Shown one piece after another: positions 4,994 to 35,784 of a DNA stretch of 57,398 bases. Origin of the DNA: a virus (lineage: Duplodnaviria > Caudoviricetes); IMG/VR virus record IMGVR_UViG_3300029258_001547, positions 1 to 57,398 of that record; one strand, 5' to 3'. A model generated the notes under the pieces. That model worked only from the letters and a program-made list of their open reading frames with translations, ran no database searches and had not been told where the DNA came from. The position numbers and the translations under genes are program-made. Numbering within the stretch: the first letter of the stretch is position 1; each line of letters starts with the position of its first letter.

Positions 4994-7900
4994 GCGTAGG
5001 GCTGGAAAATCGCCCCGAGGTTCCGCCGGGGTACACGCCGAGAAAGTCGCCCAAAGCGCCGACCCCGCAGCTTCTCACGATGCCCGAGGTTCCGCCGGGG
5101 TACGCGCCGAAAAAGCGACTGACGGGAGCGGCGAGCGCCGAACTGCCCCGGCCGCCGCAAAGCGGCCCCGGCCGGGCCGAGGCTTCCGCGAAGCCTACCG
5201 GCGAGTCGCGGGCGCGGGCGAACTTCCGAGCGACCCTCCCGGAAGACCTGGACTTGGAGAAGGTCAATCGCGGCGTCGAGGCCGGCGAGATTCCCGTGGG
5301 GCTGCGGTTCGTCGGCGAGGACGGCAACGCCTACGAGGTGTTCGCCTCGCCGAAGACGGTCGAGGAGGCGAAAGGGGCCTGGAAGTACCAGATGCCCTAT
5401 ATGCCCATCCCGGTCAGCGCGCCGGAGGGTGCGCCGAAGGCCCTCAAGGCGCTGTTTCCGAAGCGGAAGGCGATCCCCGGCCTGCAAGACATTCTGACCG
5501 GCGGCTACATCTCCGACGAGTGGCGCAAGGCGCAGGAGCACCTCCAGGAAGTCGAGCGGAACAACGGCTATGTCCGCCGCATGACGGAGGAGGCCGAGGA
5601 GATCGCCGGGGAGGAGCAGGCGTATTTGCGACAAGCCCGCGAGCGGCTCGACGAGAGCGCCACGCCGAACCTGGAGACGACGGCGATGGGCCTCGGCGGC
5701 ACGGTCGTCTCGCTGGCGCAGCGGCTCACGCTGCAAAACGAGGAGGCCGACGACACGCTCCGCGTCGCGAACGCCTTCCGGCAGGCCGCCGCCGAGCGGG
5801 ACGCGCAGGGTCGCGTGCCGGCGTTCTTGAAGCGCGGGATGCGGGGCGTGGGCGAGTCGCTGCCGCCGATGCTTCTCGGCGGCGGTCTCGGCGGGGCCTA
5901 CGGCGCGATCATCCCGGCGGTGGGGATCGAGCTAAACAGCGCGATCCAGGAGGGAAAGGACGCCGGGCTGGACGGGCTGGACCTCGCGAACTACGTCGTC
6001 GGGGAGGGCGTCATCGAGGCGGCGCCGGCGATCCTGTTTCAGAAGATGGGCTTGGGCGGCGTCGAGAAGCTATTCGGCGGGCAGGCCGGGGCGGAGGTCG
6101 CCGAGTTTTCGATCAAGTCGGCGTTGAAGCAGGCCGGCGTTACGGCGCTAGAGGAGTTGCCGGAGGAGCTTATCACCGAGATCGGCCATAACTTGCAGAA
6201 GAAGATGGCCGGCGTCGATCCCAATGCGATGTCCCGCGAGTCGCTCGCCCAGACGGTGCTGGACACTACGACGCAAACGCTGATGACGGTCGGCGTGATG
6301 GAGGCCCCTCGCGTGACGCTCTCCGCGATGCACTCGCCCGAGGTCGCCGACGAGATGTTGGAGAAGTATCTCGCGGGGGAAAGCCCGTCCCGCAAAGACA
6401 GTGCACGGTGGGGAGCGCCCGCCGAGGCTCGCACGTCCCAGGGAACGCGGTCGGCGTGGCTGGAAGGAGAGGTTACGAAAGCGGTGGCGATGGGCGTCGA
6501 GCCTCCGCCGGTGCAGCAGCCGGCGGCCGTCGCGCCTCCCGAGCCTCCGCCGGTACAAGTCACTCAAATAGAAGGAGCCGGGACCGATGCCCAGCAAGAG
6601 CAAGAAGCAGCACAAGTACATGCAGGCGGTAGCGCACGGATGGAAGCCGAAGTACGGCAAGGGACCGAGCCCGGCGGTCGCGAGGGAGTTCGTCCAGGCG
6701 GACAAGCGAGCCGGCCGGTATCAGAAGCGGCGAAAGAAGAAGCGGTAAGGCGGCCGTACGAATTCATGGCAATAGGCGAGACCGGCTACAGGGTCGGGGG
6801 CGTTTATGAGGCTGAGTCTAGAGAAGACATGATCGCAGAGCTTCTCTCTTGGGGTTACACGCCGACGAAAATTCGGAATCCCGGCGCACTCCTGTGGAAG
6901 CGGGTGTCGGAGAGTGAACTAAATGCAGCCGGCAGCGCGGTGGAAGCGAAGATGCAGGCCCGAGAAGCCGAGCTGCTGGAAGAGGAGCGGAGGAGAAAGA
7001 AAGAAGAAGCCGCCGAAGTAGCGGTCATCGAGGAGGAGGCCCCCGCCGAGCCGAAAGCTCAGCCTGCCGTCACCGAGGAGCAAAAGAAGAAGGGCGAGAC
7101 GGTCGCGCAGATTGCCGCCCGCAACGCCGTCGAGAAGGGGCAGAACATCAGCGAGTCCCTGCGGATTGCGGGAATCAGCATCAAGACGGACCCGGAGGAG
7201 TATCGCCGCGTGCGGGCGCGTGCGGCGGAGCTTGCCGACGAGATGCGGGCCGAGAAACAGGCCGCCAAGCCCGACCTCGAAGCCCTTGCCGAGCAGGCTG
7301 CGCGCGGCGAGATCGACCGCAACGAGGTCCCGGAGGGCGTCTACCCGCCGCGCTGGAACGCGATGGTCAAGCAGAAGGAACGGCAGCAAGCGGAGGCTGC
7401 ACCCCCGGCGGCTAGCGAATTACTGCAAGCCTACCAGCGAGCGGAACAACTGCGGGCTAAAGCCGAAGAAGCCGAGAGCGACAGCGAAGCAGACCGGCTA
7501 ATTGACGAGGCGGTCCTAGAGGAAGAGTCTTACGCAAAGGGCCTATGCACTCGAACTCAGAAGCCCGTCGCTTCCCTTCTTGCCAAGCATGTGCCCAGCA
7601 AGGGGATGAAAGGGTTTGCCGAAGAAAATGCCGAGAAGCACGCAGCATTTGTATTGCGTGATGTGTTCTCGATTATGCCCGGCGGGGCCAACTTCTACAT
7701 GCTGGCGGAGCACGGAACGCGAGCTATCGCTGACCGGGACGCAACCGTCGAGAAGCTCGCCAAGTCGCTCTACCATTCTTGGGCTAGAGAGCAGGGGCTT
7801 GCCGCAGACTCCCTACTTGGTCCAGCGAGTGGACTAACCGATAAAGGCAAGCGTGAAGTAGTCGAATCGTTTGGGGACCTTGCGAACGACATTTACGATG

Positions 7901-10900
7901 CGGTCACCGGCGAGATTCAGGCGATTCATGGCGCCCGGAAGTTAGCGCCTCCAGTGGAGGCGGCCGCGCAGCCCGCCCCGGTCCCCACAACGCAGCCGCC
8001 GCCCGTCAAGACGCCGCCGCCGGTGCCCGAGCCGCCCAAGCCGGCGCCGCCGGTCGAGGAGCCGGAGGGGGTGTGGCAGGGCAAGAACGATCTTCAGTGG
8101 GCGGCCCCCGCGCTGGCCGAGGCGGCGAGCAAGCTGGGGATCAAGACGAGGGGGAAAGCGAAGCGGCGGATCATCGCCGAGGCCCGCGAGGTCGAAGCGA
8201 ACATCCGAGAATACGCCGACTGGCAGGGCGTTAAAGAGCCGCAACTGCGCAACGCTCTCGATGAAGTGTTCCCCTCGATGCGAGAAGCGGCCGAGGAGGT
8301 TCGCCGCGTACAAGACCTCACCGTGGAGGCGACCGGCTTGTCGTTCCGCGATATCGCCTGGGTCGCTAACAACAACATGGATTACGAGTCCGGGCCGAAG
8401 CTGAAGCGAAGCACGCGGAAGAAGGAGCGGGAAATCGGCCGGCAACTCACCGGCGAGACCTCCTCGTTCGCCGCCGTTGTCGGTGACGTGATTCAGCACG
8501 AAGCGCCCGGCGTCCTGGAGGGTCGCGACGACATTGAGCGGACGCAAGCCCTCTGGGACCTGATGCAGCGAGGGCCGATCGAGGTGCCTCGCATGGACTC
8601 CAATGACGTGCTGGAGGCTGCAAAGGAATACGCGAAAAACACGTTCAAGGCCGAGGAGTTCTACAAGCCGGAGCGGCTCGCCAAGGAGGAAATTACCGAG
8701 GAGGCGATCGAGGAGGCGAACGCGAAGCTGCAAGACGTAGAGGACATTCCCGTCGAAGACGTTATGGCGATCGAGGCGGAGGAAATCGAGCGGCAGCTTG
8801 CTGCCGAGCCGACCTACGAGCCGCGTGCGCCTCGACTTCGGAGCAAGCTGCCGCGAGCGAAGGCCGCCGCAGCGAGGCAAGAGGCGATTGACTCGCTCAA
8901 GGAGGACTTGGGCGGCGCGATCGCAAACCTCAACTCAATTCTTGCCAAGGCGGGGCGGGGCGAGACGCCGACGGTGGGCGGGCTGAACAAGGAGATTCTC
9001 GATGGGCTCGTTCAGGTCGTCAAGGGCGCCGCGATCGCTTCGGCGAAGACGGGCAAGGCCGCCTACCTTACGTTCGCGGAGTTCATGGCGAGCCTGCCCC
9101 CTCATGTGCAAGCCTACGAGAAAGAGCTTGCCGACGTTTGGGAGAAGATTCGCACGACGACGCGGGGGCACAGGCTCGCGCCGCACCCCGACGCCGTGAC
9201 GCCGAAGCCGGGAAAGAAGCCGCCGATCAAGAAGAAGGGCGAGCCCAAGCCGGAGGTCACGCCGGAGGACGACCTCGCCGGCACGAAGCACGCCGTCTCG
9301 GACCTGATCCGGGAGAAGTACGGCATGAGGCCCCGTCGCGAGTCCGAGCGGCAGTTCGTAGACGACTGGCTCGACGAGGCGGAGGGGATTCTCCGCAGAG
9401 ACAAGGACGCGGGGCGTGCGTTGGTGGACGAGCTTACTGCCCGGACGAGAACGATCGAGAACGTCGAGAACATGACGCTGTTGCTCCATCAGCGGCAGCT
9501 TCTCAATCAGCTTAACGAAGTGCTCGCGGAGCGGCGCAAGGAGCCGGCGGGCAGCACGACCTACGCGGCGCTGGACGCCCGGGCGAGGGATATTTCCACG
9601 GAACTGACGCGGATTCTCGACGTGGCCGACGCGGGGGGCACGGCCTGGGGCCGCGCGGGCGTCGCCCGGCAGCAACTCATGCTGGCCGACCACTCGCTCG
9701 TCCACCTCAAAGCGATGGCGGAGAAGTCGAAGGGCGGATCGTTGACGCCCGACGAGCTTGACATGATCGCCAAGACGGCCGAGACGCTGGAGGGGCTGCG
9801 CAAACGGGTCGAGGCGGTGGAGGTGAAATACGCGATCGACGCAGCGATGAAGGCCGCCGCGCCCCGCCGGGAGTCCGGGACGAGGCGAGCGACGCCCGAC
9901 GAGCGGGTTGATGCCGCGAAGGCCCGGGTGCGGGACGCGCTGGCGAAGTACCGCGAAGTCGGGTTCGCCTACGATCCCGCCGGGAGAGCTTCCAAGCATC
10001 TCGAACTTCAGGCCGCGCTGGCGGAGCTTGCGAAAGCCTACGTTGCGAAGGGCGTCTACTCGCTTGCCGGGTTCACTTCCAGCGTGAAAGAGGAGTTCGG
10101 CGAGGACGCCCCGGACGACCTGGACTTCTACCGCGAAGCCTGGGGCGAGGCGAAAGGCGAGCGGCCCGACAGCAAGCGGTCGATCGACAAGTCGAAGCCG
10201 CACACGATCACGCGGCGAGCCCGCGAGATTCTCCGGGGCGTCGTGGCGAGCATGGGCATCGCCGATCCGAGCGGCGTCACCGAGGCGCTGCGAGAGGAGG
10301 CCGTCGCGAGGGTCCATGAGGATATGAGCGACCTGATGGGCGACGACTGGACGGAGACGCAGACGCGGCACGCGCTGGCCGGCGTGGGGCTGTTCCGCGA
10401 GCTTCCCAAAGACCTCGTATCGGTGCAGACCCGCGACGTGGTGGGCCAGCTGCAGAAGCTGACGCAACTGGACGAATTGAGGGCCGACCGTTCCGCGCCG
10501 AAGTTTGGCAGCGAGAACCGGACGCCGAGCGACCTGGAGCGGGACATTCAGAAGGAGGTCAACGAGGAGAAGAAGGCCTACGAGAAACGGATGAAGGCGG
10601 CGGGGAGATTCACCGACCCCGACCCGGCCAAGAGCCTCAAGACTGCGCTGGGGGCCGCCAAGACGCGGATTCGCAATCAGATACGGGACATGAACAAGGA
10701 GATCGCCGACAAGAAGCGGATCGTCAAGAAACGCACCGAGCTTGTGCCCGACCCCGAGCTTGAAAACCTGATCGAGCAGCGGGACGCGCTCAAGAAGGAG
10801 TGGGACAAGACGTTCAAGCTGCCGCTGACCGACGAGCAGAAGGCCGAGCGGCTCGTTCGAACGCTGAACAACCTCGCCGACCGGATGGAGGAGAAGCTCA

Positions 10901-12543
10901 AGCGCGGCGAAATCTGGGGCAAGAAGCCCGAGATGATTACCTCCCCCGAGGTGGACCTCGCCCGGGCGAGAATCGCAAGGCTTCGCGCGCTGCGCGAGGT
11001 GATGCAGGACAAGGACGACCCGAACCGCGCGTGGCGCGCCGACCTTACCCGCCGGCTGGTCAAGCTGCGGGAGCGCCGGGCAACGGGCGACTACGCCCGG
11101 GCCATCAAGAAGGATCGCGTGCTCTCCCAGGAGGAGAAGGACTTGCGTTGGGAGTACGCGCAGGAGTTCGCGAAGTTCAAGGCGGAACAGGAGGAGTGGG
11201 AACGCGCCCGCCGCACGACGTTCGAGAAGGTCATCGGCGTGGTCCCCGACGCGCTCAACGCCTCGCGGTCGCAGATTACCTCGTTCGACTTATCCGGCCT
11301 GCTGCGGCAGGGGGGAGCGATCGCCTTCATCGACCCGAAGATCGCTTGGGACGCCGCGAAGCCGATGTGGGCGGCGTTCAAGTCCGAGAAGGCCGAGCAC
11401 GACATTGCGGAGGAGCAACGCGCTCGCGGGATCACCGAGTTCGCCGAGCGGTGCGGGCTGGCGATCACCGTCACCGAGGGGGCCTTGCGGCGGCAGGAGG
11501 AGTCGTACATGGGGCGGTGGATGAAGCAGGTGCCCAAGTGGGCCGAGGCGACGCCGGGCAAGGAGTTCTCCTCGCCGGGCCGGGCGCTGGGCGCTCCGTT
11601 TCGGCTTGCGGCCCGCCTGGACGTGAAGGGCGTAGCGGCGAGCGAGCGGGCCTATGTTACCGTGCTGAACGAGATGCGGTTGAAGAAGTTCGAAGCGATG
11701 GTCGATGCGCTGGGCGGCCCGAACGGGGTGACGGACGCCGAGGGGAAGGTCATCGCGAACTTCGTCAACGTCTTCACGGGTCGCGGGCCGCTGGACACCC
11801 CCTTCGGGAGCCTGGAGGCGGCGGCCGTCCCGCTGGCGACGATCTTCTTCTCGCCCCGGTACGTCATGTCCCGGCTGCAAATGCTTAGCACGCAACCTTT
11901 CTGGACGACCCGAGTTGGGTGGAAGGCGGGGTGGCGGGCCCGTAAGCAGGTCGCCTGGGAGTACGCCAAGCTGCTGCGCGGCTTGACGATGTTCTATGGG
12001 TCGATTGCATTGGCGGCGGCTGCGTTCTACGACGACGACGACCCGGACAAGCCCCGGATGGAGTTCGACCCGCGCAGCGGGGCGTTCTTGAAGGTCCGAT
12101 TCGGCAACACGACGCTGGACCCCGCTATGGGGTTAGCTCAGGTCGGCACGCTGCTGGGGCGGCTGACGACGGGGCAGACGAAGCGGATCAGCGGGGAGGT
12201 TGTCGATATTCGCGGCGAGGACGTGCCCTACGGCGGCATGACGGCCCGCAGTGCGTTGCATGAGTTCGCGGACAGGAAGCTCTCACCGGCCTTCTCGACG
12301 GCCCTGGCGCTTGTGAGCGGCGAGACGGCGATGCACAAGCCACTGACGCCCGTGACCCTGGTAAGCGAGAACACGGTCCCCCTGGCCGTCCGGGACGTGT
12401 ATCAGGTGTTGCAGGATCAGGGGATGTCGAAAGGGGCGGCCCTGTCGATCCTGGCGATCTTCGGCATGGGCGTAAATGTCTGGGAACCCAGGAAGAAAAA
12501 GAAGACGGCGAAAAAGAAGAAGGTCAAGCTCTACTCCCGTTGA
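4990..12543 (+). CDS. Giant (~2517 aa) protein, putative DNA-ejection / large polyvalent-type internal virion protein
   Basis: GGAGG SD and ATGA overlap at 4990. Gly/Ala hydrophobic segments near the N-terminus, Pro-rich linkers, helical C-terminus with hydrophobic stretches. Last gene of the virion operon. Confidence 0.75.
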   Translation: MSVGLENRPEVPPGYTPRKSPKAPTPQLLTMPEVPPGYAPKKRLTGAASAELPRPPQSGPGRAEASAKPTGESRARANFRATLPEDLDLEKVNRGVEAGEIPVGLRFVGEDGNAYEVFASPKTVEEAKGAWKYQMPYMPIPVSAPEGAPKALKALFPKRKAIPGLQDILTGGYISDEWRKAQEHLQEVERNNGYVRRMTEEAEEIAGEEQAYLRQARERLDESATPNLETTAMGLGGTVVSLAQRLTLQNEEADDTLRVANAFRQAAAERDAQGRVPAFLKRGMRGVGESLPPMLLGGGLGGAYGAIIPAVGIELNSAIQEGKDAGLDGLDLANYVVGEGVIEAAPAILFQKMGLGGVEKLFGGQAGAEVAEFSIKSALKQAGVTALEELPEELITEIGHNLQKKMAGVDPNAMSRESLAQTVLDTTTQTLMTVGVMEAPRVTLSAMHSPEVADEMLEKYLAGESPSRKDSARWGAPAEARTSQGTRSAWLEGEVTKAVAMGVEPPPVQQPAAVAPPEPPPVQVTQIEGAGTDAQQEQEAAQVHAGGSARMEAEVRQGTEPGGREGVRPGGQASRPVSEAAKEEAVRRPYEFMAIGETGYRVGGVYEAESREDMIAELLSWGYTPTKIRNPGALLWKRVSESELNAAGSAVEAKMQAREAELLEEERRRKKEEAAEVAVIEEEAPAEPKAQPAVTEEQKKKGETVAQIAARNAVEKGQNISESLRIAGISIKTDPEEYRRVRARAAELADEMRAEKQAAKPDLEALAEQAARGEIDRNEVPEGVYPPRWNAMVKQKERQQAEAAPPAASELLQAYQRAEQLRAKAEEAESDSEADRLIDEAVLEEESYAKGLCTRTQKPVASLLAKHVPSKGMKGFAEENAEKHAAFVLRDVFSIMPGGANFYMLAEHGTRAIADRDATVEKLAKSLYHSWAREQGLAADSLLGPASGLTDKGKREVVESFGDLANDIYDAVTGEIQAIHGARKLAPPVEAAAQPAPVPTTQPPPVKTPPPVPEPPKPAPPVEEPEGVWQGKNDLQWAAPALAEAASKLGIKTRGKAKRRIIAEAREVEANIREYADWQGVKEPQLRNALDEVFPSMREAAEEVRRVQDLTVEATGLSFRDIAWVANNNMDYESGPKLKRSTRKKEREIGRQLTGETSSFAAVVGDVIQHEAPGVLEGRDDIERTQALWDLMQRGPIEVPRMDSNDVLEAAKEYAKNTFKAEEFYKPERLAKEEITEEAIEEANAKLQDVEDIPVEDVMAIEAEEIERQLAAEPTYEPRAPRLRSKLPRAKAAAARQEAIDSLKEDLGGAIANLNSILAKAGRGETPTVGGLNKEILDGLVQVVKGAAIASAKTGKAAYLTFAEFMASLPPHVQAYEKELADVWEKIRTTTRGHRLAPHPDAVTPKPGKKPPIKKKGEPKPEVTPEDDLAGTKHAVSDLIREKYGMRPRRESERQFVDDWLDEAEGILRRDKDAGRALVDELTARTRTIENVENMTLLLHQRQLLNQLNEVLAERRKEPAGSTTYAALDARARDISTELTRILDVADAGGTAWGRAGVARQQLMLADHSLVHLKAMAEKSKGGSLTPDELDMIAKTAETLEGLRKRVEAVEVKYAIDAAMKAAAPRRESGTRRATPDERVDAAKARVRDALAKYREVGFAYDPAGRASKHLELQAALAELAKAYVAKGVYSLAGFTSSVKEEFGEDAPDDLDFYREAWGEAKGERPDSKRSIDKSKPHTITRRAREILRGVVASMGIADPSGVTEALREEAVARVHEDMSDLMGDDWTETQTRHALAGVGLFRELPKDLVSVQTRDVVGQLQKLTQLDELRADRSAPKFGSENRTPSDLERDIQKEVNEEKKAYEKRMKAAGRFTDPDPAKSLKTALGAAKTRIRNQIRDMNKEIADKKRIVKKRTELVPDPELENLIEQRDALKKEWDKTFKLPLTDEQKAERLVRTLNNLADRMEEKLKRGEIWGKKPEMITSPEVDLARARIARLRALREVMQDKDDPNRAWRADLTRRLVKLRERRATGDYARAIKKDRVLSQEEKDLRWEYAQEFAKFKAEQEEWERARRTTFEKVIGVVPDALNASRSQITSFDLSGLLRQGGAIAFIDPKIAWDAAKPMWAAFKSEKAEHDIAEEQRARGITEFAERCGLAITVTEGALRRQEESYMGRWMKQVPKWAEATPGKEFSSPGRALGAPFRLAARLDVKGVAASERAYVTVLNEMRLKKFEAMVDALGGPNGVTDAEGKVIANFVNVFTGRGPLDTPFGSLEAAAVPLATIFFSPRYVMSRLQMLSTQPFWTTRVGWKAGWRARKQVAWEYAKLLRGLTMFYGSIALAAAAFYDDDDPDKPRMEFDPRSGAFLKVRFGNTTLDPAMGLAQVGTLLGRLTTGQTKRISGEVVDIRGEDVPYGGMTARSALHEFADRKLSPAFSTALALVSGETAMHKPLTPVTLVSENTVPLAVRDVYQVLQDQGMSKGAALSILAIFGMGVNVWEPRKKKKTAKKKKVKLYSR
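6587..6748 (+). CDS. Nested +1-frame small basic protein, 53 aa (MPSKSKKQHKYMQAVAHGWKPKYGKGPSPAVAREFVQADKRAGRYQKRRKKKR)
   Basis: AAGGAG at 6572-6577, 9 nt before the ATG. G/C-ending codons in this frame while the host frame becomes A-ending. Confidence 0.7.
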   Translation: MPSKSKKQHKYMQAVAHGWKPKYGKGPSPAVAREFVQADKRAGRYQKRRKKKR

Positions 12544-15849: not shown

Positions 15850-17202
15850 ATGCCCCGTTGGCGGCATCAAGAGGCGGCGTATCAGTTCGCCAAAGACCGT
15901 GAAGCGACGATGCTCGCGATGTGGATGGGCACCGGCAAGTCGCGGGTCGCGTGCGACCTCTTGAAATACTGGAAAACGCAGCGCGTGCTGGTGCTGTGCC
16001 CGGTGTCCGTAATGGCGGTGTGGCGGCGAGAGTTCTGCAAGTGGGCGCCCCTGGAGTATCTTGTGAAGATTCTCGACAAGGGGACTACGAAGCGGCAAGC
16101 GGAGATCGCCGCGAAAATCTACAACGAGCCCGAGCCGATCGCCGTAGTGCAAAACTACGAGTCGGCGATCATGCCCGCGTTTCGCGATTTCCTCCTGGGC
16201 CGGGCGTGGGACGCGATCGTCCTGGACGAGTCGCACCGCGTCAAGGCGCACAATACCAAGGTGTCCCGGCTGGCGGCGAGCCTCTCGCAGCGCGGCAAGC
16301 GGAGACTCTGCCTCACGGGCACGCCGATGCCGCACAGTCCGCTCGACGTGTTCGGACAGTGCCGGTTCCTGGATTATCGCGTTTTCGGGCGTAATTGGAT
16401 GCCGTTTCTGTACAGCTTCGCCGTGCGGGGGAACCCGATGATTCCCCAGCAGATCACCGGCTACCGCAATCTCGACGTACTACAAGAGCGGTTCGGGCGG
16501 CTGGCCTATCAGGTGGACGCAAGCGTACTGGAACTGCCCGAGGCGCAGCATCACGTTCGCGCGTTCTCGCTGCCGGCGAAGGCGCTGCGGGTCTACAACG
16601 ACCTTGCCAGGGATTTCATCGCCGCGTTGGACGACGGCGAGGTCGTTACCGCTGCGAACGTACTGGTCAAGACGCTGCGGCTGCGGCAAGTCGTCTCCGG
16701 CTTCCTGCAACCCGACGAGTCGGACGCCTTGCAGGAAATCCACGACGGCAAGAAGAAGCTCCTAAAGGACTTGCTGGAAGACCTGATCGGCGAGCCGGTC
16801 GTCGTCTTCTGCGAGTTCTCCCAAGACCTCCGTATCGTGCGAGAGGTGGCCGGGGGTCTTGGGTTGACATACGGCGAGGTGAGCGGGCGGCAGAAAGACC
16901 TTACCGAGCACGCCACGATGCCCGAGGGGATCGACGTGCTGGGCGTGCAGTATCAGGCGGGCGGCGTCGGGGTGGACTTCACCCGCGCCCGCTACTGCGT
17001 GTTTTACAGTCCGACCTACTCGCTGGGCAACTATGATCAGGCTGCGGCGCGGCTGCACCGCCCCGGCCAAGAGAAGTGCGTGCAGTTCTACCATCTAGTC
17101 GCCTCCGGCACGATCGACGAAGCGGTCTACAAAGCCCTGGACGCCAAGCGGGACGTGATTGAAAGCGTGCTCGGCGCGTTGCGGGCGAGGCAGGCGGCGT
17201 AA
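15850..17202 (+). CDS. SNF2-like SF2 helicase
   Basis: MGTGKS Walker A, LDESH, LTGTP, GVGVDF and QAAARLHRPGQ motifs. Confidence 0.92.
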   Translation: MPRWRHQEAAYQFAKDREATMLAMWMGTGKSRVACDLLKYWKTQRVLVLCPVSVMAVWRREFCKWAPLEYLVKILDKGTTKRQAEIAAKIYNEPEPIAVVQNYESAIMPAFRDFLLGRAWDAIVLDESHRVKAHNTKVSRLAASLSQRGKRRLCLTGTPMPHSPLDVFGQCRFLDYRVFGRNWMPFLYSFAVRGNPMIPQQITGYRNLDVLQERFGRLAYQVDASVLELPEAQHHVRAFSLPAKALRVYNDLARDFIAALDDGEVVTAANVLVKTLRLRQVVSGFLQPDESDALQEIHDGKKKLLKDLLEDLIGEPVVVFCEFSQDLRIVREVAGGLGLTYGEVSGRQKDLTEHATMPEGIDVLGVQYQAGGVGVDFTRARYCVFYSPTYSLGNYDQAAARLHRPGQEKCVQFYHLVASGTIDEAVYKALDAKRDVIESVLGALRARQAA

Positions 17203-17219
17203 ATCCAAGAGGAGTACCA

Positions 17220-17420
17220 ATGAACGTCAACACCCGCACCGGCAACGTCACTTTCACCAAGACGGAGCAGAAAGTCATCGGGCAGGCTCGCGACTTGTGC
17301 GAGGTAATGGCCCGGATGCTTCCGACCGCCGACGGCCGCACGAAGGCGATCACGGCGGCCGACACGCTCGAAGCCGTGGTTTTCGTGATGAACCCGCCGC
17401 CCCAAGACCCCGGAGAGTAG
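17220..17420 (+). CDS. Hypothetical protein
   Basis: GAGGAG SD. Confidence 0.65.
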   Translation: MNVNTRTGNVTFTKTEQKVIGQARDLCEVMARMLPTADGRTKAITAADTLEAVVFVMNPPPQDPGE

Positions 17421-17495
17421 CCGTGGGCATCGGACCAATCAGCAGCTACGACTATTGGAAGACGACCCCACCCAAAGAGGAGGAGGACGATCGCG

Positions 17496-17900
17496 ATGGG
17501 TTTGATCGAGATGCAACAACAGTACCTCTCGCTGCGCCGCGATCTCGCGGAGCAGGAGGACTCGTTGAAGAAGGCGAGGAAGAAGGCGAGCGAGCTTGAG
17601 CAGCTTCTCGCGGAGCAGATGAAGGCGCTCGGGCAAACGTCAACCGTACTGGAAGGCAAGCGCCTCACCGTGCGGAGTACGCCGAGGATCGGCAAGAAGG
17701 GCGACGTGCCGATGGAGATTCTCTGCACGACGCTCGCCGGTACGCCGTGGAGCTTTCTTGTGAAAGACTCCGTACACCCGCAATCGCTCCAAGCAACCAT
17801 GAAGGAGGTGGTCGAAGAAAACGGACAACTGCCGCCGGAACTCGAACCCCTGCTGCGATGCTGGGAACAAGTCTCGGTGGCGGTCACGTCTACCCCTTAG
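17496..17900 (+). CDS. Coiled-coil protein of the phage replication/recombination module
   Basis: Strong SD, N-terminal coiled coil, position in the module. Confidence 0.7.
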   Translation: MGLIEMQQQYLSLRRDLAEQEDSLKKARKKASELEQLLAEQMKALGQTSTVLEGKRLTVRSTPRIGKKGDVPMEILCTTLAGTPWSFLVKDSVHPQSLQATMKEVVEENGQLPPELEPLLRCWEQVSVAVTSTP

Positions 17901-17950
17901 CGGTCGGGCCGGGAGTTACCGCCTTTCGACCGGCCTTATCCTTCCAGCGC

Positions 17951-17988
17951 CGGCCCGTCGCTGGCCGCGAAAAAACGGGCCGCTTTTT
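17951..17988 (+). terminator. Intrinsic terminator-like hairpin
   Basis: CGGCCCGT...ACGGGCCG followed by CTTTTT. Confidence 0.5.
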
Positions 17989-18040
17989 GCGTTTCACAGT
18001 TTACGTTTTACAGTTCACGTTTCACGACAGGAGAGTACCG

Positions 18041-18802
18041 ATGGCGAATGAATTGGCGCTTATCGAGCCGGAGCGTTACCCGGCGCTGATCGACGGCAGC
18101 GAAATCCGCGAGGCGATCATCGCGAACACTCGCGGCGAGGGCTTCACCGAAGCCGATCTCACGCGAGTCCCCGTCCCCACGGGCGGCGGCACGACCTGGA
18201 CGATCCCGGGAATCTCGGGCGACGAGACCACCGATGCGATCGTTGGAATCCTGGTGTATTTCCAGCCGCGCGGCGTCCTCTGGCCGACGATGGAACTGGA
18301 GGGCTCGGGGCAGCTTCCGTTGCTGCTGACCAACGACTTGATTACCGCTCGCATGGTGGGAGACTACTACGGCGACATTGACCCGACCACCCTGGAGCCG
18401 TACCGCAACGACGACGGCACCTACGACTGGGCGGGGTTGACCGGCGACGACGGCCCGTTCGGCTGGGGCACCGGCAAGAACGGCGTCGGCAAGCGGGCCA
18501 AGGAGGGGCGGCTAATGATGATTCTCCGCGAGGGTGAAGGATTCCCCCTTGTGGTGAACGCCCCTCCAGGAAGCCTCCGCGCCGTGTCGCCGTTCATCAA
18601 GAAGCTCCCCGTGGCGCATTACCGGGCCGTCGTCAGTCTCGGCCTGGAGCCCGCGACCGCCGTGAAAGGGCAGAAGTACGCCCGCATTACGGCGAAGCTC
18701 GTCGGCACGCTCGACGCCGCGATGGGCAAGCGGGTCGAGGAACTCTACACCACCCCCCTGAGGAAGATGGCGGAGCGCGGCCTGCGCATCGACGCGGACT
18801 GA
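18041..18802 (+). CDS. Putative ssDNA-binding/annealing protein
   Basis: AGGAG SD, position between helicase and primase. Function is inferred. Confidence 0.5.
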   Translation: MANELALIEPERYPALIDGSEIREAIIANTRGEGFTEADLTRVPVPTGGGTTWTIPGISGDETTDAIVGILVYFQPRGVLWPTMELEGSGQLPLLLTNDLITARMVGDYYGDIDPTTLEPYRNDDGTYDWAGLTGDDGPFGWGTGKNGVGKRAKEGRLMMILREGEGFPLVVNAPPGSLRAVSPFIKKLPVAHYRAVVSLGLEPATAVKGQKYARITAKLVGTLDAAMGKRVEELYTTPLRKMAERGLRIDAD

Positions 18803-18851
18803 GGTGGTGGATTTTCTCGCGATCTGCTACCATAGCGGCGCATCGCGATCA

Positions 18852-18898
18852 GCCCGGACCCGCTCGCCTGCAAGCATCAGCGGGTCCGGGCCTCTTTT
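18852..18898 (+). terminator. Terminator-like hairpin upstream of the primase gene
   Basis: 13-bp stem GCCCGGACCCGCT/AGCGGGTCCGGGC followed by CTCTTTT. Confidence 0.65.
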
Positions 18899-18916
18899 CC
18901 AGCCTTGGAGACCGAT

Positions 18917-20410
18917 ATGGATACCCGGTTCCTGGAGGCGGCCCTCGGCTACGCGGAGATGGGAATACGGGTCTTTCCGTGCATCCCCCGGACGAAGCGG
19001 CCCCTGGTTCCCGCATGGCAGAAAGCAGCGACGACCGACGCGGAACAAATCGAGGCGTGGTGGACGAAGTGGCCCGACGCGAACATCGCTGCGCCGATGG
19101 GCGAGGGAAGCGGCATCATCGACGCGGAGTGCGACAGCCAGGAGGAAGAAGGGGAATACGTCAATCTGTTCGGCGGGGAGCCGCCGGCGACTGCTAGCTT
19201 CCTGTCCTCCGTTGACCCCAAGAGCGGATACCCCAGGAAGCACTTCCTTCTAGCGTGGCGCGACGACCTCCCGGGAGGGGCCACCGTTGACGTGGGTAAG
19301 CTACGGGTGCGATTGGGGGCAGGCGGCAAGGGGGCGTACTCAATCCTGCCGCCGTCAATCCACCCGGATACGGGTAAGCCCTATGAGTGGCTCGCACACC
19401 CCGACGACGTACCGCCGGCCGCGATCCCCGACGAGGTGGTCCCGCGCTTCTCGAACTGGCAGGGCGGCACGGCCGCGCAATCCGCCAACGAGGCCGGCGT
19501 CGGTGCAAACGGAGGCGGGAACGGCGCCGTTAAGAGCGACGACGAGTGGGAGAAGATTCTCGATGGCGTCGAGGAGGGCTCTCGCAACAACGACATGGCG
19601 TCTTACTGCGGGTGGCTGCTGCGGCAGGCGAGCGACTTGCGGAGCCGCAAGGCGGTCAGGAACCTCTACCAGACGGCTCAGGCGATCAACGAGCGGAACA
19701 AGCCGCCGCTGGCGGACAAGGAACTCAAGACGATCTTCCGCTCGATCATGAGCAAGGAAGTGCAGCGGCGGGCGACAGCGGACGCCGACGACGTGCTCCC
19801 GGACGCCCCGGACGAAGCGACGGAGCCGGCCCGGCCAGCCGGCGGCTTCCGCTTGATCATCGTCCACTCGGAGCCTCGCACCTACGAACTCTACGCCCCG
19901 CAATTCAAGAAGTCCCCGGGCAGCTTCCTGCGGCTCGACGCCAAGCAAATGAACTCGCCGGCCTCGATCCGGGTGCAGGCCCTCGAACAAGCGGACTACC
20001 CGCTGCCCAAGACGTTCGATAAGGCTTGGAGCCGCCGGGACGGCCTCTACGAGCGATGCGTCTTCCACGCAGAACACCGAGAAGCCCCACCCGAAGAGGT
20101 ACGCCCGGCAGTCATCGCGGAGCAACTTCTCTCCGTGCTCAGCAAAGCCCGGCCGCTCCTCGACGCCGAAAAGCCCGACTCCTCCGGCCACCCCTGCCGC
20201 ATGGAAGACGGATCAGTAATCTTCCTATTTACCCCAGTTTGGTCAGACTTAAACTGGGGGCCCGATCGTATAACCCGACCGGAGTTATCTCGGGTCCTCA
20301 AAGAGGTTGGTGTAACTACCCTCGAAATTGAGAAAAGAAAATGGAAGAAGCTGTCGCCGGAAGCCCTTGTCCTGCTTAAAGATAGGTGGGCTCGCGACGA
20401 GGGGGGGTAA
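18917..20410 (+). CDS. Bifunctional DNA primase/polymerase (Prim-Pol) with PriCT-1-like domain
   Basis: VFPC...KRP...ATTD..QIEAWW..WPDANIA, PPSIHPDTGKPYEW, EGSRNN...N..PPL..EL. Confidence 0.88.
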   Translation: MDTRFLEAALGYAEMGIRVFPCIPRTKRPLVPAWQKAATTDAEQIEAWWTKWPDANIAAPMGEGSGIIDAECDSQEEEGEYVNLFGGEPPATASFLSSVDPKSGYPRKHFLLAWRDDLPGGATVDVGKLRVRLGAGGKGAYSILPPSIHPDTGKPYEWLAHPDDVPPAAIPDEVVPRFSNWQGGTAAQSANEAGVGANGGGNGAVKSDDEWEKILDGVEEGSRNNDMASYCGWLLRQASDLRSRKAVRNLYQTAQAINERNKPPLADKELKTIFRSIMSKEVQRRATADADDVLPDAPDEATEPARPAGGFRLIIVHSEPRTYELYAPQFKKSPGSFLRLDAKQMNSPASIRVQALEQADYPLPKTFDKAWSRRDGLYERCVFHAEHREAPPEEVRPAVIAEQLLSVLSKARPLLDAEKPDSSGHPCRMEDGSVIFLFTPVWSDLNWGPDRITRPELSRVLKEVGVTTLEIEKRKWKKLSPEALVLLKDRWARDEGG

Positions 20411-20750
20411 CAACTTAGCAGCCCTTTATAGAAACTGCGAACGAACACCCAAAAATTAAATAGCCTGTAACGTGTTGAAAACAAAAGACTTACGAAAATC
20501 GTGCGAACGAACGAAATTGAGTTCGATAGTAAATAAGTCGTTGAAGTCAAAAGGGTTAGGAAAATCTCGAGTCGAACGAACGAACTTTCAGCCGGGGCAA
20601 TGACCGTAAAAGTTCGTTCGCTCGTTCGGAAATTCGCGTAAGTCCTTTGGTATCAACAACTTATTTACTATCGAACTTACGAACGAACTCGAAAATCGAG
20701 TCGAACTTCGTTCGCATCCCCTCATAGGTAGTAGAGAGGAGAGCTTCCCA
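20411..20750. other. Putative replication origin: AT-rich, CGAA repeats, nested inverted repeats, IHF-like sites
   Basis: Markedly AT-rich intergenic tract between primase and helicase genes, with a 19-bp perfect inverted repeat at 20520-20538/20659-20677. Confidence 0.6.
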
Positions 20751-20751
20751 G

Positions 20752-22422
20752 ATGGTGCAAGTTGCCAGGCTTATCGGAGGGGCAGGGACCGGCAAGACAA
20801 CGGCCTTGCTCGAACTGATGGACCTAGCCCTGGAGACCTACAAAGACCCCTTCCAGGTGGGGTTTTGCTCATTTACCCGCGCAGCCCGCCGCGAGGCGTC
20901 GTCAAGGGCCGGCGACAAGTACGGCGTCAAGGCTGTGGACCTGGAGCGCGGGGGGTGGTTCCGAACGATCCACTCGATCTGCTATCGGTGCCTCGGAGTG
21001 GGGAAGGAGCTTATCACCCAACAGAAGGGGGACCGCGAGTGGCTGGAAGAAGCCCTCAGTGAGAAGCTCGGGGACGGCAGCGGGGGAGCCAACGTCGAGG
21101 ATGACTGGTATCAGCCGGCCATGCTCCAGACCGACGCGACCAAGGCTCTGTCGCTCTGGGACTGTTCCCGCAATCGGACGATAGGACTTCCCGAAATTCA
21201 CGCCGCCTATTCCCTCTATTTACCTGATTTACCCAGTTTGGACTTCTGCCGGAAAATCGTCGAGAAGTACGAGCTTGTCAAGCGGCTGGACGGCCGCTGC
21301 GATTTCGTCGATCTCCTGGCCCGATTCGGCGGCTATCACTTCACCGTCGAGGGCTGCGAACGGTGCGAACCCCAGGGAGTGCCTCCAGACGTCCCTGTGT
21401 GGCTCCTGGACGAGCAGCAGGACGCATCGCCTCTCCTACATGGTGTCTGCCGGAGGCTCGTAGAAGACGCCGTGTGGTGCTATATCGTGGGTGATCCGAT
21501 GCAGAGCATCTACGGGTTCGCCGGCGCGGACCCGCACCTGTTTCTGGGGGGGTGGGGGGACTGCAAAGAGAAGATCATGCCGCGTAGCTGGCGGTGCCCC
21601 AGGACCATCCACGAACTCGGGGAGCGTGTACTTGAAAACTGTTCGGACTACTGGGATCGGAAAATCGCCCCGGCGGACCACGACGGGCGCATCGAAAACC
21701 ACCACTGGCGGCACGTCGCGGGGCTGGTGAACCCCACGGAAGACTGGCTCGTCCTGGCGAGGACGAATTACCTGGCCGCCCGGCTGGCGAGGGCGCTGGA
21801 CGGGGCTGGCATCCCGTGGCGCCCCACAAAGGGGCACGGGCGATGGGACGCCCCGCAGCGGCTCAAGGCGATCCAGGCGCTGAAGAACCTTGAGGCCAAC
21901 TGCCCGATCAGCGGGTCGGAGTGGGCGGCGATCCTCAGCCAAACAAAGGTCAAGGCGAACGGCGAGGCGCTTTACGTCCGGGGAACCAAAAAAGACTGGC
22001 TCGACCTCACGGAAGATCAGGCCGACGACAAAGCAGGGACGTGGGTGCTGCCGGAGCACCTCGGCGAGCTTGGCGCTACGGCTGCGTTCCTAAAGCAAGT
22101 GCGGGCCGGCTTGTGGCGAGGCTGGGTAGCGCGGGGTCACGATGTAAGCGATGCGATCGACAAGCACGGTTACGAGGCCGTCGAGGCGAGCGGCGTGCGG
22201 CTGGGCACGGTACACTCAGCGAAGGGCATGGAGGCCGACAACGTGGCGCTGCTGACGACGATTCCGATGCAGGTGGAAAACGGAAAGAGGACGACGGAAG
22301 GGGCAAACGAGGAGCACAGGGTTTCCTACGTTGGAGTGACGCGAGCGCGCCGCCGGCTGGCCCTGCTGGACGAGCCTTGCGGCAGGGCGCGCCGCGTCTT
22401 CAAGATGGAGATATGCCCATGA
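20752..22422 (+). CDS. UvrD/REP-like SF1 helicase
   Basis: GGAGTGKT, LDEQQD, VGDPMQSIYGF, TVHSAKGMEAD and YVGVTRAR motifs. Confidence 0.93.
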   Translation: MVQVARLIGGAGTGKTTALLELMDLALETYKDPFQVGFCSFTRAARREASSRAGDKYGVKAVDLERGGWFRTIHSICYRCLGVGKELITQQKGDREWLEEALSEKLGDGSGGANVEDDWYQPAMLQTDATKALSLWDCSRNRTIGLPEIHAAYSLYLPDLPSLDFCRKIVEKYELVKRLDGRCDFVDLLARFGGYHFTVEGCERCEPQGVPPDVPVWLLDEQQDASPLLHGVCRRLVEDAVWCYIVGDPMQSIYGFAGADPHLFLGGWGDCKEKIMPRSWRCPRTIHELGERVLENCSDYWDRKIAPADHDGRIENHHWRHVAGLVNPTEDWLVLARTNYLAARLARALDGAGIPWRPTKGHGRWDAPQRLKAIQALKNLEANCPISGSEWAAILSQTKVKANGEALYVRGTKKDWLDLTEDQADDKAGTWVLPEHLGELGATAAFLKQVRAGLWRGWVARGHDVSDAIDKHGYEAVEASGVRLGTVHSAKGMEADNVALLTTIPMQVENGKRTTEGANEEHRVSYVGVTRARRRLALLDEPCGRARRVFKMEICP

Positions 22423-33468: not shown

Positions 33469-33853
33469 CGCAGCCCGTAACGCCCGCATCGCGCGGGAGT
33501 GGATGGGGTGGGAGCCTTACCACTTCGTCGGTGGACGCCTGGAAGGGTGGTACTGCTACGGCTGGCCGAATGGCGTGCGAGATATTCGCAACTGGGCGCC
33601 GACCACGAACCTCGCCCACGCGGCAGAGGCGAGGCTGCGAGCAGATTCGTGGACCTTGCGATTTGACGCGGATCATGCTGAGGTGACGTGCTTACTGTAC
33701 GTTGGCCCCATTTCGCCCAAGGCATTATCATCGGGCCGTGCTTACTTACATGAGACTCACGACCGCGCCCTCGCCGAGTGCGAGGCGACGTGCCGTGCCA
33801 TCGAGGCTGCATTGGACGCTAGAGCCGCCGAGGCGGCGAAGGAAACGGCGTGA
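33461..33853 (+). CDS. Phage ABA-sandwich-like small protein
   Basis: IAREWMGW...WAPTTNLAHA...ATCRA pattern. Family recalled, not searched. Confidence 0.55.
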   Translation: MNNAARNARIAREWMGWEPYHFVGGRLEGWYCYGWPNGVRDIRNWAPTTNLAHAAEARLRADSWTLRFDADHAEVTCLLYVGPISPKALSSGRAYLHETHDRALAECEATCRAIEAALDARAAEAAKETA

Positions 33854-35784
33854 GCGAAGCTCCTAGTCTGATCGACTGCGTGCCGAAAGACCCGGCGGAG
33901 AATCTTCTCTGGCGGCAGGAGTGGCGCACGGCCTGCCACAAGGACGCGACGTATCAGCACGCTTTCACGGACGCGGCGATGGAGGACGTGCTTTTCTGGT
34001 TCAACGGTTTCTGCTGGCTGTTCGAGCCTCGCGCGATGGTCAAGGAGATACCGTTCGTAACGTGGCCGCACCAGGACCCTTGCATCCTGACGATGGATCG
34101 GTCGATCGTGGAATCGGCGGAGCGGAGCGAGCCGATCGACGTGGTGGTGGACAAGTCGCGAGGGCAGGGCGCGACGTGGATGTACCTGATGGTGATTCAG
34201 CGCCGCTGGATACGCGACCCGTTGTTTTCGGCCGGGCTGGTGACTCGCAACGAGAAGCTGGTGGATTCCAGCCGCGACCCGGACACGCTGTTGTGGAAGT
34301 ACGTTTGGATGCTGGAGAAGCTGCCGCCTTGGATGCTCCCTGGCGGGTACGTTCGGAACCTCAACGACCACGCCGTCACCAACCCGGTGAACCATGCGAC
34401 GTGCATCGGGTATTCGGCGACGGGCGACGTGGCTCGCGGCGGTCGAAAGAGCGTTTTTGCGTTGGACGAGCTTGGGGCGTTGGACTGGATTCGGGCGGAG
34501 AACGACCGCTCGGCGATGGACTCGACGCACCACGTCACGAACTGCCGATTTCTGGTGAGCACTTACGGGGCGGATCGCGGTGCGTTCTACGAGGCGGCGA
34601 CGGAGGACAACGACGCGATCAAGGTGATCCTGGATTGGCACGACAATCCGATGCAGAACCGGCTCAGCTACAAGCTGGCGGAGGGCGGCAAGCCGGAGGC
34701 AATCAGGGGGGAGGAGCAGGACGAGGTAAATAAGTACATTAAGGCAAACCAGCAGCGACTAAGGAGGCTGGAGAAAAGGGGGCATACGATCGTCGGTAAG
34801 GTACGCTCGCCTTGGTACGACGTGGAGTGCGGCCGGCCTGGGGCGACGCCGAGGTCGGTAGCGAAGGAGTTGGACCGGAACCCGCGCGGCGCGGTCGGAA
34901 AGGTGTTCGACACGGAGGTTCTGGACCGGATGGAGGCCGAGTGCGTTAAGCCCCCTGTTTGGAGGGGAAAGGCGATCATCGACCCGGAGCGGTGCATTGT
35001 GACGGGGTTTGTTCGGCAGGAGGGCGGGCCGTTGAAGCTGTGGTTCAAGCCCGGCCTGGACAACATGGTCCCGATGGGTAGTTACTGCGTGGGGTGCGAC
35101 ATTTCGGCCGGCGGCACGGGGAGTTACAGCAGCAACTCGGTGGCTTGCGGGGTGGACGTAGCCACGGGGGAGCAGGTGTTCGAGTACACGATCAAGGGGC
35201 AGATGGCGACGAGGTTTGCTCGTACCTGTGTAGCGCTGTCCAGGTGGGCTCGGGGAGCTTTTCTTGGGTGGGAAGCAACCGGGCCTACCGGCAGCGCTTT
35301 TGAGCGGGAGGTGCTGGAGGAACTGGGGTACTGGAACGTCTACTACCGGACTGTCCTGAGCGTATCCTCGGCGAAGTACCAGAAGCGGCCCGGATGGTGG
35401 AACGGGAGCGACGACGACAAGGGGCTGCTTTTCGAGCGTCTTTGCATGGCGATGGCGGAGGATCGGCTGATCCCCCGGTCGGCCGATTTCATTCGGGAAT
35501 GCGGCGAGTACGAGTGGGACGAGAACAGCAAGATCATCCACGCCCCGACGAAAATTCATGCCACCTCTGCGGGGAAAGCGCACGGCGATCGCTGCATCGC
35601 CGGCGGAGTTGCCTGGTTATTGTGCAGTGAACGCCTAGAAAGTGGGCTTGACAGGCTCAATGAAACGTCTCAGAATCCCCCGTATGGGTGTTGGGCGTGG
35701 CGGGAGGCCCGCGACAACGCGGATCGTCGTAAGTGGACCGACGACGAGCCGCAGCCGACGCTCAGGGACATTCTGAGAAACTAG
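33850..35784 (+). CDS. terL: Terminase large subunit
   Basis: VDKSRGQGATW Walker A variant, ALDE Walker B, GCDIS and HGDRCIA RNase H-like nuclease motifs. Confidence 0.9.
   Translation: MSEAPSLIDCVPKDPAENLLWRQEWRTACHKDATYQHAFTDAAMEDVLFWFNGFCWLFEPRAMVKEIPFVTWPHQDPCILTMDRSIVESAERSEPIDVVVDKSRGQGATWMYLMVIQRRWIRDPLFSAGLVTRNEKLVDSSRDPDTLLWKYVWMLEKLPPWMLPGGYVRNLNDHAVTNPVNHATCIGYSATGDVARGGRKSVFALDELGALDWIRAENDRSAMDSTHHVTNCRFLVSTYGADRGAFYEAATEDNDAIKVILDWHDNPMQNRLSYKLAEGGKPEAIRGEEQDEVNKYIKANQQRLRRLEKRGHTIVGKVRSPWYDVECGRPGATPRSVAKELDRNPRGAVGKVFDTEVLDRMEAECVKPPVWRGKAIIDPERCIVTGFVRQEGGPLKLWFKPGLDNMVPMGSYCVGCDISAGGTGSYSSNSVACGVDVATGEQVFEYTIKGQMATRFARTCVALSRWARGAFLGWEATGPTGSAFEREVLEELGYWNVYYRTVLSVSSAKYQKRPGWWNGSDDDKGLLFERLCMAMAEDRLIPRSADFIRECGEYEWDENSKIIHAPTKIHATSAGKAHGDRCIAGGVAWLLCSERLESGLDRLNETSQNPPYGCWAWREARDNADRRKWTDDEPQPTLRDILRN

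Follow-up and report, generated by a model that had tools for sequence, protein, structure and literature searches.

The stretch of DNA analysed here, referred to below as the window, is the IMG/VR record IMGVR_UViG_3300029258_001547, a complete viral genome of 57,398 bp with direct terminal repeats and a GC content of 63%. This report concerns a small gene of the window, the 53 sense codons of which, starting from an ATG at 6587, lie wholly inside a 2,522-codon open reading frame (ORF) on the same strand and are read in its +1 frame, so that the two form an internal overlap. The translation of the small gene is MPSKSKKQHKYMQAVAHGWKPKYGKGPSPAVAREFVQADKRAGRYQKRRKKKR. The nested start codon, its 53 codons and frame, the TAA stop ending at 6748 and a Shine-Dalgarno-like (SD) motif AAGGAG upstream had all been pointed out in an earlier examination of the letters alone (hereafter the sequence-only reading), and each was found exactly where it had been placed (Table 1). 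Upstream of position 6570 the nested frame translates into Arg-rich junk, which is ended by a TAG at 6569-6571. Since the nested frame is junk there and is closed by this stop, the giant protein is still in its own frame when it reaches the small gene.

Codon usage reverses between the two frames over the nested gene. In 120-nucleotide windows across 6520-6730, the nested frame had a GC content of third codon positions (GC3) of 0.88-0.90, whereas that of the host frame, 0.8-0.95 in the rest of the ORF, dropped to 0.47. The codon-usage score of the host frame fell to -0.32 at the nested interval, the lowest value in the giant ORF (mean 0.29, standard deviation 0.17), while the nested frame scored +0.37, which is typical of the genome. 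The codon switch described in the sequence-only reading is thus borne out, as is its description of the crossing segment (host residues 538-597) as a low-complexity linker of the giant protein. No second frame reversal of this kind was detected in the giant ORF when its alternative-frame open stretches of at least 60 codons were scanned. A 53-codon ORF starting with ATG in an alternative frame of a gene with 63% GC is unremarkable by itself, and many such ORFs are present; it is the frame reversal, together with homology and recurrence in other phages, that lifts this one above chance. Logan contigs from four runs of three studies, which may contain the source sample and hence are possibly not independent, showed no differences and no gaps relative to the window over 5600-7600. 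The nested arrangement is not an assembly slip.

Just 3' of the nested gene, two segments of the host frame (6750-7050 and 7400-7800) also have weak GC3 (0.57-0.72) and poor codon scores. Scans of GC3, codon scores and alternative frames revealed no convincing alternative-frame gene in either segment, and both may be recently acquired or of low complexity.

Table 1 Features of the nested gene and its host in the window
Feature	Position	Strand	Description	Basis
Host giant ORF (P0002), 2,522 codons	4975..12543	+	Gene-caller version P0004 begins at the sixth codon	
Conserved host N-terminal domain, residues ~205-460	5587..6354	+	Common to many giant proteins of 1,000-4,188 residues	
Nested-frame TAG stop	6569..6571	+	15 nucleotides 5' of the nested ATG; 5' bound of the nested frame	Sequence; ends ORF 6401..6571
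SD-like motif AAGGAG	6572..6577	+	9 nucleotides 5' of the nested ATG, within host codons	Sequence
Host-frame linker, residues 538-597	6586..6765	+	Spans the nested gene; rich in E/A/G/Q/R, isoelectric point (pI) 5.3, poor codon usage	
Nested gene (P0001), 53 codons and TAA	6587..6748	+	Small basic protein of the phrog_16759 family	ORF list, profile match
Host domain, residues 1012-1119	8008..8331	+	Common to other nested-gene hosts	
Host C-terminal region, residues 1688-2506	10036..12492	+	36% identity to the L185 host (P0006)	

The nested product belongs to a widespread phage family

The sequence-only reading had likened the nested product to small Lys-rich phage proteins that are usually encoded by stand-alone genes, and profile comparison supports this resemblance. 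Residues 1-47 of the peptide aligned to positions 1-47 of phrog_16759 (58 positions) with an E value of 1.4e-9, and the peptide also matched the first ~50 positions of phrog_22033 (845 positions) and of phrog_25121 (263 positions), both of them 'virion structural protein' families. A tblastn search with the peptide retrieved 50 records of cultured phages; IMG/VR contained 406 relatives and the JGI metagenomes contained 258 or more. Homologues, which the sequence-only reading had allowed might be lacking, are therefore numerous, and the +1 frame is open in those relatives that have the nesting. In phiKZ and its relatives the family member stands alone (PHIKZ165.1), in Stenotrophomonas phage BUCT555 it is a gene of 52 residues, and in two jumbo phages the module heads proteins of 328 and 262 residues.

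The N-termini and product sizes of the family were assessed in the loci of the first 80 of the 406 IMG/VR relatives. In all 80 the first residue of the product, encoded by an ATG or GTG, is also the first of the match, an in-frame stop lies at most 99 nucleotides upstream, and the products are either 47-60 residues long or reach 100-320 residues with the module at the head. The window copy follows this pattern of an N-terminal module, its ATG at 6587 being preceded by the nested-frame stop at 6569-6571. In an alignment of 23 members (A5), M1, P2, K4, Q8, M12, V31 and F35 are invariant, and S3, S5, K6, K7, A14, A16, G26, E34, A38 and D39 are nearly so; the window protein agrees with the consensus at the latter positions and, being the first row of the alignment, carries the invariant residues by construction. 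The resulting family pattern, MPSKSKKQ..FM.A.AH...V..EF..AD, describes a basic protein of ~50 residues. The window peptide contains 18 Lys and Arg and 2 Asp and Glu among its 53 residues and has a pI of 11.2, while those of the 22 other members are 9.9-10.9. AlphaFold2 predicted two helices for the nested peptide (residues 6-16 and 29-42), with a mean predicted local distance difference test (pLDDT) score of 82.7.

The nested peptide had no match in Pfam or NCBIfam. DUF3008 (PF11450) came up as a lead in one ESM Atlas cluster, in which 37% of the members carry PF11450, and in one BFVD row with an E value of 4.3; none of the 23 family members matched the Pfam model of DUF3008 even at E<=1, and scattered single Pfam matches were all that was seen. 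The ESM Atlas search otherwise returned small viral hypothetical proteins. No relative of the nested peptide was found in the PDB by sequence, either with the single sequence or with a profile, and Foldseek searches with the AlphaFold2 model gave no PDB match at E<=0.001 and, in BFVD, family members and uncharacterised proteins only.

Columns 31-35 of the A5 alignment hold a near-invariant V-(A/G)-(K/R)-E-F, which we take to resemble the S/A/G-X-E cleavage motif of the phiKZ-type prohead protease. As a speculation, cleavage at this motif would turn the first 34 residues into a removable targeting peptide.

The sequence-only reading also expected standard gene callers to miss the nested gene, and in a collection of 15 billion proteins this was indeed the case: the collection has the giant protein and lacks the exact window peptide. 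Four of the five nested peptides were absent from it, and three of four non-nested controls were present. Two entries of the P0030 cluster, P0156 and P0157, are 988-residue versions of the 1,459-residue host from contigs of 8-9 kb, and the nested 68-residue peptide was called on one of these contigs, an indication that gene calling occasionally breaks the host in two where the nested gene lies.

The nesting recurs in other phages

Nesting in the +1 frame was found at the DNA level in four further phages (L021, L170, L177 and L185), the GC contents of which range from 39 to 59%. One of the 80 IMG/VR loci, L021 (51% GC), has the small gene in a host ORF of 1,173 residues, with GGAGG 5' of its ATG. 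A metagenome scan yielded L170 (39% GC), where a 47-residue gene with GGAG 5' of the ATG is nested in an ORF of 1,195 residues. In L177/L178 an intact gene of 68 residues, with AGGAG 5' of its ATG, lies in a host of 1,459 residues (P0030), and in L185 an intact gene of 58 residues, with GAGGAGG 5' of its ATG, lies in a host of 2,085 residues (P0006). An SD-like motif thus precedes an intact nested ATG in all five DNA-level cases, the window included. The codon-usage contrast between the frames was seen here as well, with GC3 of 0.93 in the nested and 0.49 in the host frame of L177, and of 0.90 and 0.43, respectively, in L185.

Nested copies were also sought from protein sequences. A set of 149 representative homologues of the giant protein, out of 266 found, were decoded as favourably as possible in the +1 and +2 frames and scored against a two-block profile of the small family (the shadow scan). 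Shadows of the small protein appeared in five homologues (P0006, P0030, P0057, P0071 and P0136), with scores of 53.8-73.7 compared with 27.2 for the next-best protein. All five lie in the +1 frame with their blocks spaced as in the window, and the residues 5' of the shadow can encode AGGAG or GGAGG in every one of them, while 24% of random 5-mers can. For two of the shadows (P0030 and P0006) DNA was available, and in both it contained an intact nested ORF preceded by an SD site. Altogether, the nesting is represented by five DNA-level cases and three cases at the protein level only (P0057, P0071 and P0136). When the alignment of the shadows (A4) was used as a query, it retrieved nothing from IMG/VR or the JGI metagenomes.

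Two observations touch on individual contigs. A contig of 1,363 bp (L102) carries a 46-residue member of the family at 454-594, inside open frames of 185 and 207 codons (129-994), and none of its third positions carries a T that would create a stop. Although this could be a further nested case, the sixth, so short a contig allows no judgement, and the case is ambiguous. The L185 contig, the closest relative with the same nesting, is 56,425 bp long and is filed in a metagenome-assembled genome that bears the label of an uncultured Cytophagia bacterium. Its size is close to that of the window genome, and it could be the genome of a phage that was binned together with a candidate host.

Selection on both frames and their relative age

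The probability that the host frame is open by chance was computed by synonymous resampling, conditional on the nested protein and on local codon usage. It amounted to 0.26 for the window, 0.018 for L021, 0.0003 for L170, 0.12 for L177 and 0.04 for L185. A stop-free -1 frame over the first 45 codons was found in none of the 113 non-nested family members. The third positions of the nested genes, which are the first positions of host codons, hold a T in 5 of the 225 codons of the five nested genes, compared with 12-33% in GC-matched non-nested relatives, and this depletion holds also at sites where T makes no stop. A T at these third positions would begin a host codon for Phe, Tyr, Trp, Cys, Leu or Ser, so that its scarcity would fit selection for a hydrophilic linker as well as selection for openness.

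Amino-acid identity was higher in the nested than in the host frame in all ten pairs compared. Between the window and L185 it was 33/47 in the nested frame and 27/48 in the host frame, and the flanking host domains were just 36-44% identical. At equal protein identity, third-position divergence was 0.48 per site in nested pairs compared with 0.63 in 1,803 non-nested pairs, a difference to which composition adds and which comes from pairs that are not mutually independent. This comparative evidence indicates that both frames are selected, which would make the segment a true dual-coding region. As regards anatomy, and leaving function aside, we consider it highly probable that the nested gene of the window is real and that the region is dual-coding and under selection.

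The nested frame is the older of the two, because the family is distributed more widely than the nesting, the nested codon usage is normal and the nested frame is the better conserved in all ten pairs. The signs of classical overprinting are reversed here: the nested frame is widespread and uses typical codons, and it is the host segment that is atypical. The host-frame reading of the segment is then the newcomer, the reverse of classical overprinting. The sequence-only reading had proposed that an older gene was absorbed into the giant one. Its first half is upheld by distribution, codon usage and the ten pairs; absorption as the mechanism is a matter of interpretation, as fusion, insertion and exchange would account for the data alike.

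Giant host proteins and their gene neighbourhood

The gene-caller version of the giant protein of the window (P0004, 2,517 residues) is 100% identical to the giant ORF and occurs on four contigs (JGI/IMG, Logan and ENA). The genome is present in sediment and seawater. The first 1,200 residues of the protein were matched by 266 proteins at E<=1e-3 and by 60 at E<=1e-30, the best-matching stretches falling mostly within residues 200-540 of the query, at the head of the protein. AlphaFold2 produced an all-helical model of the host N-domain with low confidence (pLDDT 62). Farther along the protein, the second domain of P0006 (residues 559-661) aligns to residues 1012-1119 of the window host (E 5e-13) and, in P0006, is situated directly 3' of the nested gene, and P0136 matches residues 988-1138 of the window host. 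The host C-terminal region aligned to L185 over 836 columns in a tblastn search (E 2e-128). The giant protein had no megablast match in cultured phages and no tblastn match in loci L001-L085, and its N-part had no match from an IMG/VR locus scan.

The L021 host contains the Pfam domain InPase (E 2e-33) and also matches minor-head-protein and DarB-like PHROGs, and the L170 host matches phrog_11358. Comparison of the window N-domain with the N-regions of the L021 and L170 hosts by hhalign gave a probability of 4%, and a hidden Markov model (HMM) of the N-domain built from 122 homologues matched no ORF in L001-L085, the L021 host included. The L021 and L170 hosts are therefore not demonstrably homologous to the window host.

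In L019, a gene of 1,162 residues that matches phrog_11358 is followed after 39 nucleotides by a stand-alone small gene. In BUCT555, L007 and L009, the first 11 nucleotides of the small gene overlap the end of the portal gene, and the two frames are related as they are in the nested hosts. In L033, a module-headed gene is found in the structural cluster, ~2.5 kb after the major head protein gene.

A phrog_16594 gene follows the host in both L021 (6772-7266) and L170 (5548-8914 region). Next in L170 comes a gene of more than 961 residues with DNA methyltransferase and helicase PHROG matches, presumably reminiscent of P1 DarB in its domain make-up. In the window itself, a replication module at 15850-22422 comprises a helicase (phrog_62, E 6e-101), a primase/polymerase (phrog_1156, phrog_695) and a second helicase (phrog_1967). 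The majority of the remaining large ORFs have no PHROG match, so the window phage is very poorly covered by known families. The sole terminase-like signal of the window is a weak match to phrog_5989 (E 0.00099) at 33850-35784, ~29 kb from the giant gene. If this signal is a terminase, a structural block would continue across the ends of the record, with the giant gene at its far end.

Weighing of the interpretation

Several observations weigh against the interpretation given above and are collected here. No RNA run was present among the sequencing runs that hold this stretch. The host frame of the window, taken alone, is open by chance in 26% of the resamplings, and the chance probabilities of the five cases cannot simply be multiplied, since it was the openness of their host frames that led to the other cases. 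Within this host family the nesting is an exception: 144 of the 149 representative homologues have no shadow, the small gene was found within 4 kb in none of the 11 IMG/VR loci that encode the host N-domain (L086-L096), and P0057, P0071 and P0136, all from Logan, are known as protein shadows only. The nested peptides do not form one clade (approximately unbiased (AU) test, p 0.007) and the nested hosts are scattered in the N-domain tree, with five changes, of which the starred branches force at least two. A single inherited arrangement thus cannot explain all cases, and the nesting has been gained, exchanged or lost more than once. The giant protein of the window matched nothing in Pfam or PHROG and so has no recognised domain; its assignment as a virion-packaged or polyvalent protein is made by analogy, from the L021 and L170 hosts and from gene order. 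Finally, the PDB searches, negative by sequence and by fold, lend no structural support to a function of the small protein.

The giant ORF could be an accidental read-through, in which two or three ordinary genes (an N-part, the small gene and a C-part) have been joined, transiently or just on paper, by a recent stop loss or an assembly error into a fusion without a selected role; the host frame would then be open here simply because stops are rare in the alternative frames of GC-rich genes. The chance openness of the window host frame (0.26) and the ATG at 6766 after the nested gene agree with this, as does the host codon usage, which is at its worst here and has weak GC3 for ~250 nucleotides past the nested gene. 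However, the stretch is identical in the Logan contigs of four runs and the giant protein is present on four contigs; the host frame has no stop, so ribosomes must continue, and no good SD motif lies 5' of the ATG at 6766. Furthermore, the nesting is also seen at 39-59% GC, where the chance openness is 0.0003-0.12, third-position T is depleted even at non-stop sites, the window and L185 share the arrangement though their host proteins are just 36-44% identical, and the homologues that lack the small gene are contiguous giant proteins themselves. We regard accidental read-through as largely refuted and very improbable. A comparably slim chance is left to the small ORF being a dead passenger, an untranslated relic swallowed by the giant gene that owes its intactness to chance or to a recent fusion. 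Genes nested in actively translated ORFs are often poorly initiated, which favours a silent relic, and most homologous giant genes are without the small gene. Against this, the nested ORF is intact and has its ATG and SD-like motif in five of five DNA cases, SD-compatible residues stand before five of five shadows compared with a background of 24%, the nested frame is better conserved in ten of ten pairs with the family-invariant residues all kept, and the nested-frame GC3 is 0.88-0.93.

Least probable of all is that the small ORF is part of a frameshift product, in which the module would be joined to the downstream part of the giant protein by a -1 shift near 6740 or to its upstream part by a +1 shift before 6587. 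The module does head proteins of 100-845 residues in many relatives (phrog_22033, for example), and the nested ORF ends in an A/G-rich run of Lys codons; yet the TAG at 6569-6571 leaves 15 nucleotides (6572-6586) for an upstream +1 shift, and stand-alone members of 47-60 residues with similar basic tails are common. A programmed -1 frameshift site was rejected as a candidate, as reading of the codons of the window, L021 and L170 by eye revealed no X_XXY_YYZ heptamer and no common motif near the ends of the nested ORFs. A different kind of alternative accepts the anatomy and changes its origin: a mobile cassette or a recombination junction would have been put into a tolerant linker of genes that were already giant. 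Such an origin is consistent with host homologues that lack the small gene and are already contiguous giants, with the scatter of the nested hosts (five changes) and the non-monophyly of the nested peptides, and with the sequence 3' of the nested gene, which differs among hosts. It is opposed by the overlap of the small gene with the stops of large genes in the matching frame, which offers a one-step route by fusion, and by the single frame relation of all eight nestings (five in DNA and three as shadows), which stop loss predicts and random insertion does not. We consider this origin possible, if rather doubtful.

Proposed origin of the nesting

Taking the window to hold a real nested gene in a dual-coding region, its history might be as follows. 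In relatives, the small gene is normally located directly 3' of a large virion gene (a portal or giant gene), its first codons overlapping the stop of that gene, and the ancestral state would have been of this kind. Because the overlap is in the matching frame, a change at that stop would carry the upstream gene across the small gene; stop loss, or module exchange at the junction, could thus have fused the upstream to the downstream gene across the trapped small gene. The giant frame now crosses it as a low-complexity linker of ~60 residues between the N-domain and a variable remainder, and the nested gene is probably translated independently from its own SD motif and ATG. The constant position of the MPSKSKKQ module at a free N-terminus (80 of 80 loci) would explain why the small gene is kept as a separate out-of-frame unit and is not fused in frame. 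Split hosts were sought among the shorter representative homologues; their C-termini resemble fragments at contig ends, and none of them ends in the start of a shadow. Fusion of flanking genes, insertion into a linker and exchange of modules fit the present data alike, and the choice of fusion is our inference.

Possible role of the small protein

The small protein is tentatively viewed as a basic virion-associated protein or as an N-terminal module for incorporation into the virion. What points to a virion role is its charge, its fixed free N-terminus, its proximity to genes for portal, head and giant virion proteins, and the place of the module at the head of annotated virion proteins. The giant protein is probably packaged and ejected, and the small protein would be produced alongside it. 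The DNA-condensing role proposed in the sequence-only reading may apply as well; its sole basis is the basic charge, and it is compatible with a virion-associated protein. Complex prediction with the N-domain alignment (A1) and the small-protein alignment (A5) returned a score of 0.00 and no answer, which is not evidence either way.

A bolder proposal, which we hold to be improbable, is that the small protein serves giant packaged proteins as a dedicated partner, perhaps an adaptor or plug whose free, invariant MPSKSKKQ N-terminus steers itself or a fused cargo to the procapsid or portal, and that its gene has been trapped repeatedly, in one frame, in the linkers of polyvalent genes. If this were true, co-translation from one mRNA would set the stoichiometry of adaptor and cargo, the 'gene-in-linker' would be a recurrent, selected architecture, and the loading of giant polyvalent proteins into phage heads would become approachable for the first time.

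Implications

For annotation, the nesting means that a conserved phage family is systematically lost where it is nested. The shadow scan detected such copies from protein sequence alone and might find wide use. As regards evolution, the locus is a clean case of reverse overprinting, in which a linker was written over an older gene, recurrently and across genomes of 39% to 63% GC, and the nesting has left measurable footprints on the synonymous sites of the older gene. It also suggests a way for giant mosaic proteins of phages to become larger, by bridging two adjacent genes and sparing the gene between them. The small basic protein is very common, occurring in jumbo phages of the phiKZ type as well as in freshwater and marine phages that are abundant, and is tied to portal and giant virion-protein genes; this tie is a concrete place to seek its role.

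Comparison with known systems

Out-of-frame genes nested in other genes are already known in phages, and what sets the present case apart is that the nested gene is the old frame and lies in the linkers of giant proteins. Rz1 of phage lambda, which lies within Rz, is one such internal out-of-frame overlap. Gene E of phiX174, within gene D, is another, described in the part of Pavesi 2021 (PMC8227390) drawn on here. As in these two pairs, the window has a short gene inside a longer gene of the same strand, in another frame, with its own start and a product unrelated to that of the longer gene, and as in them the nested gene escapes simple gene calling. Unlike the window gene, which is old and has hundreds of stand-alone relatives, the nested genes of those pairs are taken to have arisen de novo and are narrowly distributed. 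Moreover, nesting of the window type recurs in hosts that are not detectably homologous, and the host segment is merely a linker. The age of overprinted genes is judged by phylogenetic distribution and codon usage (same part of PMC8227390), which are also the grounds on which the nested frame is taken as the older one here.

By sequence, the closest counterparts of the nested peptide are members of its own family, namely those of phrog_16759 (PHIKZ165.1 and the 52-residue gene of BUCT555), phrog_22033 and phrog_25121; these either stand alone or head a larger protein in frame, whereas the window copy is nested out of frame. Literature searches (main texts, without supplements) returned no account of the function of this family or of a gene nested in polyvalent proteins, irrelevant papers only for phiKZ 165.1, and none for DUF3008.

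Among the hosts, the nearest known class is that of the polyvalent proteins of phages, in which InPase domains occur and which are likely packaged into the virion, P1 DarB being cited as an instance in the part of the article drawn on here (Iyer et al. 2017, PMC5512222). Like them, the nested-gene hosts are giant mosaic proteins, and the L021 host has an InPase domain as well as DarB-like and minor-head PHROG matches. Unlike them, the window host has no recognised effector domain. The word 'overlapping' is absent from the main text of PMC5512222, and nesting in polyvalent proteins is not treated there under that word.

For the origin of the arrangement, the comparison leads outside the phages. 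According to a hypothesis set out in the same part of PMC8227390, the spacer of the hepatitis B polymerase bridged a primordial short S gene between two flanking genes. That case differs from the present one in that it concerns an animal virus with a tiny, compacted genome and a single ancient event, whereas the window-type cases are found in tailed-phage genomes of 30-60 kb, overlap over ~160-210 nucleotides and are not monophyletic. In both, nevertheless, the linker of a large protein would be read across a smaller functional gene that was there before it, and we consider the hepatitis B spacer and S gene the nearest parallel to the nested gene of the window.

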